Assembly: GCA_951406725.2 (NCBI GenBank)
Contig: OX597818.1
Coordinates: forward strand, 67,890,001 to 67,954,000
DNA: 64,000 nt
Direction of reading: 5' to 3'
Source: Octopus vulgaris
Taxonomy: Eukaryota
Shown: piece by piece, positions 31,898-58,261 of the stretch
Position numbering within the stretch: position 1 is the stretch's first letter
Layout: each line of letters opens with the position of its first letter
The notes under the pieces: generated by a model
Told to the model about the DNA's origin: nothing
The model's database searches: none
The model's input: the letters and a program-made list of their open reading frames with translations, nothing else
Translations under genes and position numbers: made by a program

Positions 31898-32480
31898 AAG
31901 GCAGCGAGCTGGCAGAGACGTTAGCACACCGGGCGAAATGCTTAGCGGTATTTAGTCTGCCGCTACGTTCTGAGTTAAAATTCCGCCGATGCCGACTTTG
32001 CATTTCATCCTTTAGGGATCGATTGAATAATTACCAGTTACGCACTGGAGTCGATGTATTCGACTTAATCCGTTGGTCTGTCCTTGTTTGTCCCCTCTGT
32101 GTTTAGCCCCTTGTGGGTAGTAAAGAAATAGCTATTTCATCTGCCGTTACGTTCTGAGTTCAAATTCCGCCGATGCCGACTTTGCATTTCATCCTTTAGG
32201 GATCGATTAAATAATTACCAGTTACGCACTGGGGTCGATGTATTCGACTTAATCCATTTGTCTGTCCTTGTTTGTCCCTTCTGTGGTTAGCCCCTTGTGG
32301 GTAGTAAAGAAATAGGCAATTCGTCTGTCTTTACCTCTGGTTTCAAATTCTGCCGAGGTCGACTTTGCCTTTCATCCTTTCGAGGGTCGATAGATTAAGC
32401 ACCAACTGCGTACTGGGGTCAATGTAACCTACTGGAACCCTCCCCCCAAATTTCTATCCTTGTGTCTAAAGTAGAAAAGA
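31898..32480 (+). mobile_element. SINE family A tandem multimer (one head plus three bodies)
   Basis: Full copy at 31898-32131, headless repeat at 32132-32315, and a third body with an alternative tail to 32480. Confidence 0.9.
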
Positions 32481-41675: not shown

Positions 41676-42659
41676 TAATGAATCTGAAAGTTTAGAATTC
41701 CATGAAAAAAATTAAAGTAAAAACATAATTCTTTTAAACAGTAGTCAGGAAAATGATTTTATATTATAACATGTTGGGAACTGCAAGAATAACATTCGCC
41801 AAAACAGATTTCTCCATTACAATAGATATAATGCTTCACCGACAACAAATTCTTTTCCAGAAGGGTAGGAAAATACCATTCAGTGAACATTCTGATTGTT
41901 GTGCTGGAAGGCAGCAACCGAAATTTGAAATATTCCCATTATATAAATGTCTGGAAAAAACTCAAAAGAAACAGCAAAGACATTTTTTTTGAGAAATATA
42001 AATTTGAATCATAATTAATTAAAACAATTTGTTTTTAGCTTAAATAACATTATTTGCTCACGTATATGCACAGACGTCGCTTCTAGTAAAGTAAATAACA
42101 CTTCTTTTCTTGTTAATTTATGTGTATGTCATTAACCTTTCTTACATCCATGGCATTTAACCGAGCATTTTAGAGGGTAACGCACGTAGCGTTTCTTCGA
42201 TTATTTCCTACTTTGTTACAAGTTTGTCGGGAAAATGGCATTTAATAATATATAATGGCTGCATAATGTATGACTTCATTTTAGGCATATCACCCTTTTA
42301 TTTATATATGTGTGTGATTGTGTGTGTGTGTGAGTGAGTTTATAGGTACACACATGGGTATCACAACAGCAGGCTAACAACAAAATGGATCTTGCAATGA
42401 TTATCGTCCATGCGAAGTGAAGTTTGTTTGCAAGAATTTACTTCGAATATGTAATAAAGTACCTTCAAATACTTTTATTAAGTACAAAAGAAAATGTGCA
42501 TTTTCAGATCAAGTTTCCGGTTCATACGTTCGGGTAAGATAAAATAAAGTACCAATCACATATTGCAATCCATGAAATCGATTAGCACAAGCCTCTAAAA
42601 ATGGTTGGTCTTGAGATAAAATCAGAGGCAATTTTTATGTAGTATTTCCCTCTGCGTAT

Positions 42660-51775: not shown

Positions 51776-52800
51776 TCCTCGTTCCATGTGTAACTGGTGT
51801 CGCTAAAGTGAAACCCCCAAAGCAAAACAAAAACCTAAAATAGATGAATAGTGATAGACAATTAAAAGAAAAAGTAATGAAAGCGAAAAGCTGAATGTGT
51901 GTATTATGTGTGTGTGTGTGTGTGAAAATATATTAAAAAATGGTGGTCAGGATTTTGGATCAAACTGGCTCTTGGAAGTGGCTGATAGGTATGTGTTTGT
52001 GAATATGTGTGTATGTATGGGTATGTTTGTATGTATAATATTGCGTGTGTTGCTGTTTTGAATTCCTTTCTGCGATTGAACTGAAATTGACCCTTGGCTA
52101 TTAAAGACCTTACCACGCACGTACACACGTTTGTTTAAGGTTTTGTACCCATTTGAACTGCTGCTATACATCAGATAACTTGGTAGGGTTTATGATCTGA
52201 AATTTAAATTTTGACTTTGTTTTAATCATAAAATTACACACCAGCTAAAAAACACAACTTTTGGCTTTGGAAAACAGAACATTTTCTCTCTCTTAATATA
52301 TTTTTTATTAAATTAGTATTTTTCTATTTTGATCAGGATTTCCCAATTTCCTGTATCAAGCAATGGACAGAGAAGCATTTACAAAAAATTAAATTCATAG
52401 AGTCGAACAAAATCAAAGCGTTAATTTTAATCGTAATGATGTAGAGGAGTAAACATTTTCCGTTTCCTTAATACTAACAAGAGCATGGTATGAGGGAGAT
52501 TTGGCTGTTATTTCTAGCAAATTCAACAACCACGAAGAGTGTGCCTCATTAGCTCATTTTTTGATGTGCATAAGTAAACAAAAACTAACGGGAAAACAGA
52601 CACTAGTAAACACACAGACACACATATACCCACCCAACACACACACGTATCCATCTATCTATCTACCTACCTACCAATCTGTCTTTCTATATATATATAT
52701 ATATAAAATTAAATAACGGTAGAAATAGATATTAATCAATTAAAACTAGTGGCCTAGCATATTTAAAAAGAAAATCCGAAGATAAAAAATAATTTTACAT

Positions 52801-52997
52801 ACAAAATTTAGAGGAATGACCACTAATAGTGGACAGCCTGTATGCTAGAAATAGACGTCAAACTCGTCATTTACCACGAAGAATGTGTTCTCAAGAAAAC
52901 ATTCAGCAAAGAACACATTCTTCGTGGTAAATGTCGAGTTTGACGTCTATTTCTAGCATACGGGTTGTCCACTATTAGTGGTCATTCCTCTAAATTT

Positions 52998-53000
<3 letters not shown>
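52801..53000. repeat. Foldback: 91-bp inverted arms, 18-nt spacer, inside a (TA)n-flanked insert
   Basis: 52801-52891 versus 52910-53000, with few mismatches. Confidence 0.93.
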
Positions 53001-53037
<37 letters not shown>

Positions 53038-53040
<3 letters not shown>

Positions 53041-53821
53041 GTTCTTGGAATCTCCACTTATAGAAAATGGAAAAAACGGTCTTTGACTGCCATTTCTAAT
53101 TCCTTCGGTATGAGGCGAAACAGCCTGCTGCTAGCCACCTTATTTTCTTTACTATATACTGAACCTTACAAAGGTCCTGACAATTAATTTGTCGTATTTA
53201 CATACCGAAATTTACCGGTAAATAATCGTTGGTTACATGAAAAACCACAGAAAATTATTTACCATTTTTATTTTATTACCATGTGGATTCCTCATTCCAT
53301 TACGATTACCCAGAAGGCGCGCATGGCAGAATTTTGGAGGGAAAATTTACGTTCCCAGTCGTTACTTAGTTTTAACATCTGCGCACTTCCCCCCACTATC
53401 TGATGTCGTTGGGTCAGAAGTGAGGGCTGGTGGCATTTGGTGAAGCTATCGAATATAGCGCTGATGACGGAATTCAAACTACTTTTTCTATGTTTGTGAT
53501 CCAGAAACACGGTGTTCGCTATTAACGGTAAGTGACCGCTTTCGTATATTTGCCACTCCGATTTTGTGTATGTGAGCCGTAAGGGCCTTCGTTTTTGGAA
53601 TCTCCACTTATAGAAAATGGAATAAACGGTCTTTGACTGCCATTTCTAATTCCTTCGGTATGAGGCGAAACAGCCTGCTGCTAGCCACCTTATTTTCTTT
53701 ACTATATACTGAACCTTACAAAGGTCCTGACAATTAATTTGTCGTATTTACATACCGAAATTTACCGGTAAATAATCGTTGGTTACATGAAAAACCACAG
53801 AAAATTATTTACCATTTTTAT

Positions 53822-53822
<1 letters not shown>
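53038..53822 (+). mobile_element. (TA)n-flanked 550-bp-period partial tandem element (retrozyme/pLTR-like)
   Basis: 53038-53272 is repeated at 53588-53822 (235 bp, about 2 mismatches). Contains the hammerhead at 53455-53522. Confidence 0.85.
53455..53522 (+). ncRNA. Type I hammerhead ribozyme motif
   Basis: atagcg-CTGATGA-cggaattcaaac..gtttgtgatcca-GAAAC-ACGGT-GTT-cgctat; perfect 6-bp stem I. Confidence 0.8.
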
Positions 53823-53865
<43 letters not shown>

Positions 53866-56245: not shown

Positions 56246-56319
56246 ACTATACTGAAGACGGAAATAAGTGAGTAAAAATTAAATTTTACAACTCTTTAAT
56301 CCAGAAACGCGTATATAGT
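56246..56319 (+). ncRNA. Type I hammerhead ribozyme motif
   Basis: actata-CTGAAGA-cgga...tcca-GAAAC-GC-GTA-tatagt; 6-bp stem I and palindromic ACGCGT stem III. Lies in an AT-rich element at about 56140-56600. Confidence 0.8.
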
Positions 56320-57720: not shown

Positions 57721-57798
<78 letters not shown>

Positions 57799-57860
57799 AT
57801 AGAAATATTAAAATTACTAAGTCTCTCTAAAGGAGATTACGGCAGCGTTACTGGAAATTA

Positions 57861-58261
57861 ATAGTTATCGCCATACTTATATGGCAGTCTTATAAATATA
57901 AGACTAAAGCTGTCGCTGATTAGCTCCAAGAGGCCACCGCCTCAAGCTAGCTATTTGACAGACAACCTGCGACCATTATAAACCTTCGAACAGGGGAGGT
58001 CAGCCGCTTCATCCTGCCAGCCAGACAGCTGCAGACATGTTTCAGGGTATTTGCTGCATTGATAAAGGGCAAATACCCTGAAACATGTCTGCAGCTGTCT
58101 GACTGGCAGGATGAAGCGGCTGACCTCCCTATTCGAAGGTTTATAATGGTCGCAGGTTGTGTTTCAAATAACTAGCTTGAGGCGGTGGCCTCTTGGAGCT
58201 AATCAGCGACAGCTTTAGTCTTATATTTATAAGACTGCCTTATAAGTATGGCGATAACTAT
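57861..58261. repeat. ~400-bp foldback (arms ~194 bp, 14-nt loop) embedded in (TA)n
   Basis: 57861-58054 is the near-perfect reverse complement of 58069-58261. Confidence 0.95.
58053..58095 (+). ncRNA. Minimal type I hammerhead with U3-A8 core variant
   Basis: gctgca-TTGATAA-aggg-caaata-ccct-GAAAC-AT-GTC-tgcagc. Confidence 0.78.

Follow-up and report, generated by a model that had tools for sequence, protein, structure and literature searches.

The insertion at positions 53038–53826 of the window (the whole 64,000-nt stretch of Octopus vulgaris DNA analysed here, part of contig C5 of the 2.8-Gb genome) is one young copy of a protein-free repeat with a 550-base unit. The family to which it belongs is almost certainly a new family of animal non-LTR retrozymes, and it was very probably mobilised by a Penelope-type enzyme. 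For the window copy itself we lean towards a fuller reading: a 1.43-unit non-LTR retrozyme insertion in a TA microsatellite, likely the work of a Neptune-type Penelope-like reverse transcriptase (RT) that copied a likely circular RNA of the monomer.

A 550-nt unit with a hammerhead motif

Two direct repeats of 235 nt each, at 53038–53272 and 53588–53822, are spaced 550 nt apart and are 99% identical, with 2 mismatches. Our recomputation agrees on this point with a sequence-only reading of the window, and also on the hammerhead motif with a perfect 6-bp stem I between the repeats and on the (TA)n tracts at both ends. The true end of the second repeat lies at about 53824–53826 (m237–239, in a unit numbering m1–m550 where m1 is position 53038), a few bases beyond where that reading had placed it, and over the full overlap the first lap has a private 2-nt change at 53273–53274. 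The insertion has the following parts, and contains only one hammerhead motif:

53002–53038, no strand: left (TA)n target tract, shared with the neighbouring inverted element (52706–53012) as its terminal tract
53038–53272, plus strand: extra lap, 5′-truncated (m1–235); first direct repeat, or pseudo-LTR
53273–53587, plus strand: single-copy part of the 550-nt unit (m236–550), containing the hammerhead
53455–53522, plus strand: type I hammerhead motif; stem I formed by 53455–53460 with 53517–53522, core at 53461–53467
53469–53502, plus strand: stem II of the hammerhead, long and interrupted, its foot flanked on either side by an unpaired base
53504–53516, plus strand: hammerhead GAAA (53504–53507) and palindromic 3-bp stem III (53507–53515); predicted cut after 53516
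53588–53826, plus strand: second direct repeat, which runs as far as the long start site B (m236–239); its final 2–3 bases are common to the TA tract
53702–53708, and also 53152–53158, plus strand: short start site A (m115–121), the commonest 3′ end of the family, read through here
53650–53813, plus strand: predicted helices m63–172 and m180–226, which enclose site A and stop just short of site B
53825–53861, no strand: right (TA)n target tract

Neither of the two stop-to-stop frames (117 and 122 codons) that overlap with the element has a Pfam match. From its predicted fold, the helical region at 53650–53813 is a candidate protein-binding region; by eye, blocks of it are kept in sister families.

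The motif at 53455–53522 is the best hammerhead motif within the element. An Rfam scan, with 52 matches at E ≤ 1, gave no hammerhead family and only microsatellite-driven microRNA matches. The 86-nt hammerhead piece folds no better than shuffled sequences (z = −0.59), and its active fold has an energy of −8.9 kcal/mol compared with −12.4 kcal/mol for the minimum-energy structure. We found 153 complete motifs, in 105 of 121 loci. Their core is canonical in 98, carries a U4C change in 51 and has other changes in 4, and the GAAA and an extra A before it occur in all 153; because of this invariant extra A and the frequent U4C, hammerhead activity is uncertain. A covariation analysis, based on 11 sequences that represent about four lineages, found changes on both sides in 11 of the 17 pairs and pairing in 97.9% of cells, above all 500 shuffles and all slid controls. 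With a structure drawn from the copy in the window and with so few lineages, we take these values as support for a hammerhead fold conserved across sister families, and not as a probability. Stem III varies among subfamilies yet stays palindromic, down to a loopless form that cannot fold within one motif. The ribozyme is of an atypical form and probably has to pair as a dimer. In the parts of the literature available to us (which also bound the other comparisons with cited sources below), dimer-type hammerheads carry an unpaired base following position 9 and are weakly active in vitro (PMC4209133); insertions in the core are tolerated in hammerheads, this one not being among those described in the accessible text (PMC3088659); and 8 of 9 frog retrozyme dimers were without cleavage in vitro (bioRxiv 10.64898/2026.07.22.740005).

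A related hammerhead motif, with the same unusual stem II foot and a fully covarying stem I, is present elsewhere in the window at 56246–56319. Unrelated hammerhead-like motifs with a long stem II and a palindromic stem III occur in the flanks of five loci (L152:686, L157:266, L243:9823, L245:1875 and L253:1864).

Dispersed copies with two internal 3′ ends

With the middle part of the element as query we obtained 821 candidates, among which the 40 that were scored were copies at 94–100% identity. An exact 20-mer has 301 matches in the genome, which points to a few hundred dispersed insertions; the 99 of these matches listed on contigs C1–C5 represent 61 places, which scales to about 185 loci for this single word. 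When up to 2 mismatches are allowed, a 22-mer has 640 matches, including sister families at 70–78% identity. Periods in the family range from 543 to 562 nt, and the closest copies are 1.2–2.6% divergent from the one in the window. For the analysis of copy structure, 149 fetched stretches were merged into 102 loci and 98 were kept: two were chance pattern matches (L053 and L069), and two (L089 and L090) were dropped as one duplicated block running past the reference, re-read as L180 and L181.

Copies of the family occur in two forms: 47 of the 98 loci have a single orientation, and 51 are two-armed, with the arms joined at their 5′ ends and each arm ending on (TA)n. An arm is longer than one unit in 48 of the 98 loci and longer than two units in 4, and arrays of 3.1 and about 4.6 units were found among later loci. 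The junction from unit to unit is identical everywhere, and the length and position of the repeat vary from locus to locus. The 5′ ends fall in every 50-nt bin of the unit, with no excess near the ribozyme cut (4 of 149, where 5.7 are expected), and two cut sites are spanned by 18 arms. Thus the genome-wide check proposed in the sequence-only reading, for permuted starts and for multimers, found both, with arms that reach 2–4.6 units.

The circular permutation expected in that reading holds for the 5′ ends and fails for the 3′ ends, which are fixed at two internal sites unrelated to the ribozyme cut. Among 149 3′ ends in the 98 loci, 69 are at m112–124 (site A), 51 at m230–253 (site B) and 29 elsewhere, although the choice of loci by similarity and short patterns biases these counts, and the A:B ratio, towards site A. 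The two sites, 118 nt apart, thus account for 120 of the 149 ends; a TA repeat follows 140, and only 1 is near the ribozyme cut. The two arms of a locus never end at the same site. None of the 51 two-armed loci is a same-site pair, compared with a mean of 15.3 and a minimum of 4 in 100,000 permutations, a test that conditions on the ends observed. In a second set of 34 loci, same-site pairs make up 0 of 20 two-armed loci, with several ends shortened by low identity and one locus (L228) ambiguous. In the openly accessible article texts that we searched, we found no description of the 550-nt family or of such strict use of one site per arm.

Other accounts of the ends were tried and rejected. 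Pure microhomology as the cause of site B does not fit the little use made of the longer TA runs at m416 and m508. Abutting of arms of the L1 type is weak (12 of 51, with about 7.3 expected). Target-site duplication was rejected on the lengths of the TA tracts, which are uncorrelated (rho = 0.15, p = 0.20; 80 of 98 loci); the matching 37-nt tracts around the window copy are probably a matter of chance.

Each insertion carries a single haplotype. Between laps within an arm there are 96 differences in 11,528 sites, 3 of them at family polymorphisms, and between the two arms of a locus 122 in 13,017, 8 of them at family polymorphisms; the between-locus comparison gives 3.7% and 2.4%. Different laps diverge by 0.52–0.68%, compared with 0.66% for the same lap in two arms (p = 0.42, 47 loci). 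Among rare variants in the 121 loci, 31 are in all passes of their locus, 145 are in one pass and 7 are in some; by our reading, 4 of these 7 lie at CpG sites and 3 are unexplained. The cut site is crossed without a gap in 164 of 167 passes. In the 4.6-unit array no lap has more than one private change, a star-like pattern. We saw no sign of RNA editing in the family, in that template-level variants have no A-to-G excess (6, compared with 3 T-to-C). A single haplotype per insertion is to be expected when one monomer circle is copied over and over; it could also come from a linear array that is very young.

A search of sequencing runs listed none of RNA type that contains the element. We also examined contigs from eight sequencing runs, the type of which is uncertain and was guessed. 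Two runs from two studies (X10 and X6, guessed to be RNA) each have one 585-nt contig spanning the whole unit with a self-overlap of about 30 nt, opened at a different point in each, and two others (X5 and X4) cover the unit in pieces, so the self-closing contig is present in 2 of 4 runs (without a silent control stretch). Such a self-joining contig fits a circle, and also tandem transcripts or DNA. In a comparison of contigs with the region of both repeats, there was no start or end signal at the ribozyme cut.

The longest arrays (about 4.6, 3.2 and 2.9 units) are in a duplicated inverted block, L180, L181 and L183, at 262–305 kb of contig C13. Their 5′ end is at m482, adjoining the predicted cut, and the 2.9-unit array is interrupted by an assembly gap. 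The block is a possible source array. Two sister retrozyme families at 70–78% identity, one represented by L215, L216 and L175 (unit about 618 nt) and the other by L222, L230 and L174, have the same long start site, and one of them has a very long AT-rich stem II.

A candidate Penelope-like driver and its template

An RT fragment near one locus was used as a query and gave 8,350 first-look candidates, of which 150 were scored and 50 loci examined. Among them is a family of Penelope-like elements (L235:659–5225 and relatives in L234–L251) with a 753-codon frame that encodes RT and GIY-YIG domains and has a CX4CX2C linker, which we assign to the Neptune type by motifs alone. Its frames are intact, its copies are 97–100% identical, and it is located in (TA)n. 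It has two end sites 45 nt apart, and among 18 loci read, the four two-armed ones in which both ends are visible (L234, L236, L239 and L240) have a different end site on each arm. The 12 nt before its two ends match best at m115 and m236 among the 550 positions of the retrozyme unit, with scores of 7.0 and 7.5, compared with 4.0 and 6.0 at the next unrelated positions; these matching motifs are short and AT-rich. Extended DNA homology between the unit and terminal repeats was found in none of the 50 Penelope-like loci examined (of the 8,350 candidates), and the older Penelope-like families here have other end motifs. No autonomous parent is attached to a copy in the 5′ flanks of the 47 one-orientation loci. 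Nearby Penelope-like fragments were considered as parents of copies and rejected as separate insertions. On balance, we think that the Neptune-type family is the driver of the 550-nt family.

Upstream of its RT frame, the Neptune-type family has a frame of 340–370 codons without a Pfam family, and its 3′ region has, by eye, a hammerhead-like motif of the U3-A8 type. In the window, a fragment at 41708–41950 resembles the GIY-YIG part of the Penelope-like protein (33% identity, E = 4e-8).

In an in vitro study, a Penelope-like protein with a predicted dimeric structure nicked both strands and extended them, with two internal starts that bound the tail; it used mainly uncut RNA, ribozyme activity was dispensable, and the start site did not differ between strands in the data accessible to us (PMC11167929). 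The strict one-site-per-arm pattern seen here is an addition to those findings.

Taking these results together, we propose that loci with two hammerheads would be transcribed, and that their ribozymes would pair via the palindromic stem III and then cut. The monomer would be ligated into a circle which, having one ribozyme, would then be stable. The enzyme would bind the structured region m63–240, nick (TA)n on both strands and prime at sites A and B, with copying running round the circle past its start; priming by both ends would give a two-armed insertion, and priming by one a partial tandem like the window copy. The sequence-only reading offered either reverse transcription around a ribozyme-made circle or Penelope-style tandem formation. 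Its proposal is supported, except that the two probably amount to a single process in which a Penelope-type enzyme copies this RNA; the cleavage, the RNA circle and the identity of the driver are what we infer. That the template is a circular RNA seems to us reasonably likely. A bolder version, possible rather than probable, is that a dimeric Penelope-like enzyme grips one circle, primes each DNA end at its own site and copies round in both arms, that the retrozyme mimics both start motifs rather than descending from a terminal repeat, and that the ribozyme, active only as a dimer, cuts multimers but leaves the circle intact. If true, a single mechanism would lie behind three features of Penelope-like elements: their pseudo-LTRs, their inverted arms and their one-sided tail.

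The same enzyme and start sites could instead act on an uncut linear transcript of a tandem array, with the hammerhead having no role in insertion. We consider this rather unlikely, even though uncut RNA served as main substrate in vitro (PMC11167929), some arrays have 3.1 or about 4.6 units, U4C is present in one third of passes, and a young source array would be expected to give the clean cut site, the single haplotype per locus and the one-site-per-arm pattern. Such a template would need a long source for each subfamily, when so few of the 98 loci exceed two units; it sits poorly with laps that show no extra divergence and almost no recurrent differences, and with the star-like 4.6-unit array; and the fold and the palindrome of stem III are kept through double changes. 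End-to-end template jumping is known for R2 enzymes, so the enzyme might alternatively jump from the 5′ end to the 3′ end of a cut linear monomer for its extra laps, which would account, with no ligation step, for arms of more than one unit and for a single haplotype at each locus; 5′ ends that do not pile up at the cut and the near-absence of scars there make this improbable.

Mobilisation by some other enzyme, whether another Penelope-like family (other Neptune/Nematis or Naiad) or a LINE, is very doubtful. The sampling of only 50 of 8,350 RT candidates, their lack of terminal-repeat homology, and the different end motifs of older families leave room for it, but the young Neptune-type family is intact and both of its end motifs match the retrozyme sites, and two internal starts with a one-sided tail are hallmarks of Penelope-like elements (PMC8557442, PMC11167929). 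We give almost no credence to a TRIM or LTR element, a local tandem duplication or an assembly artefact. The window copy taken alone does resemble two terminal repeats around an internal part, but the repeats differ in length and position at every locus, the unit junction is constant and 51 of 98 loci are two-armed. Fixed LTR- or TRIM-like termini, uniqueness to this locus and an assembly artefact, named at the outset as grounds for abandoning the ribozyme reading, are thus absent.

Relation to known elements and neighbouring features

The family consists of head-to-tail hammerhead units with no protein and no LTR features, which is how animal non-LTR retrozymes are defined at the sequence level. 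With those elements (PMC7229834; bioRxiv 10.64898/2026.07.22.740005) it shares non-coding tandem units with one type I hammerhead each and a GC content below 45%, a highly paired predicted circle (here z = −4.0 against 40 shuffles), and the co-occurrence of Penelope-like elements. The 550-nt unit is inside the 51–972 bp range reported in bioRxiv 10.64898/2026.07.22.740005 and longer than the retrozyme circles of 170–400 nt that have been tested. Animal non-LTR retrozymes form long arrays, whereas copies here mostly have 0.1–2.3 units, and the retrozyme descriptions that we compared, as far as these were accessible, do not mention its strict targeting of (TA)n, its two start sites or its two-armed insertions.

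Every hallmark of Penelope-like insertion that we looked for is present in the 550-nt family. In common with Neptune/Nematis elements (PMC8557442, PMC11167929) it has pseudo-LTR partial tandems, an inverted 5′-truncated arm, a tail at one end, two internal RT starts, extension on both strands and a bias to (TA)n; unlike them it has no protein, its tail is about 118 nt rather than 30–40, and the only similarity detected to the candidate driver's terminal repeat lies in the two short end motifs. The Chlamys MRC1-like elements (PMC8557442) are likewise non-autonomous Penelope-like derivatives with pseudo-LTRs and head-to-tail copies, but they resemble the 3′ ends of autonomous families and are mostly without hammerheads, in which the 550-nt family differs. 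Its hammerhead shares a short palindromic stem III, a long stem II, the unpaired base after position 9 and a G10.1-C11.1 pair with the dimer-type hammerheads of Penelope-like elements and a newt satellite (PMC4209133), and differs from these in the invariant extra A between stem II and GAAA, the 6-bp stem I and the U4C change in one third of passes.

How Penelope-like tandem and inverted insertions form, and whether a ribozyme-made circle is their template, is described as an open question in PMC8557442, and in the available text of PMC4209133 and PMC7229834 such a circle is only proposed as template. The family provides a 550-nt substrate and a simple (TA)n target, and the genome that carries it also encodes a candidate intact enzyme, so that the question becomes directly testable. 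The predictions are precise: each strand should be started at its own one of the two sites, and a circular template should yield multi-lap products.

The window has other insertions. A two-armed insertion between TA tracts at 57797–58261 has one arm with a tail of about 65 nt and contains, at 58059, a hammerhead-like motif whose core has U3/A8 instead of C3/G8, a pairing-preserving hammerhead variant (PMC4209133). Another two-armed insertion between TA tracts, at 52706–53012, has arms at 52789–52891 and 52910–53012 that are 92% complementary, with the left arm about 80 nt longer than the right, like a one-sided tail; the retrozyme insertion is located in its right-hand TA tract. At 31949–32380 there is a 184-nt tandem repeat of 2.4 copies, which looks like a dispersed short element.
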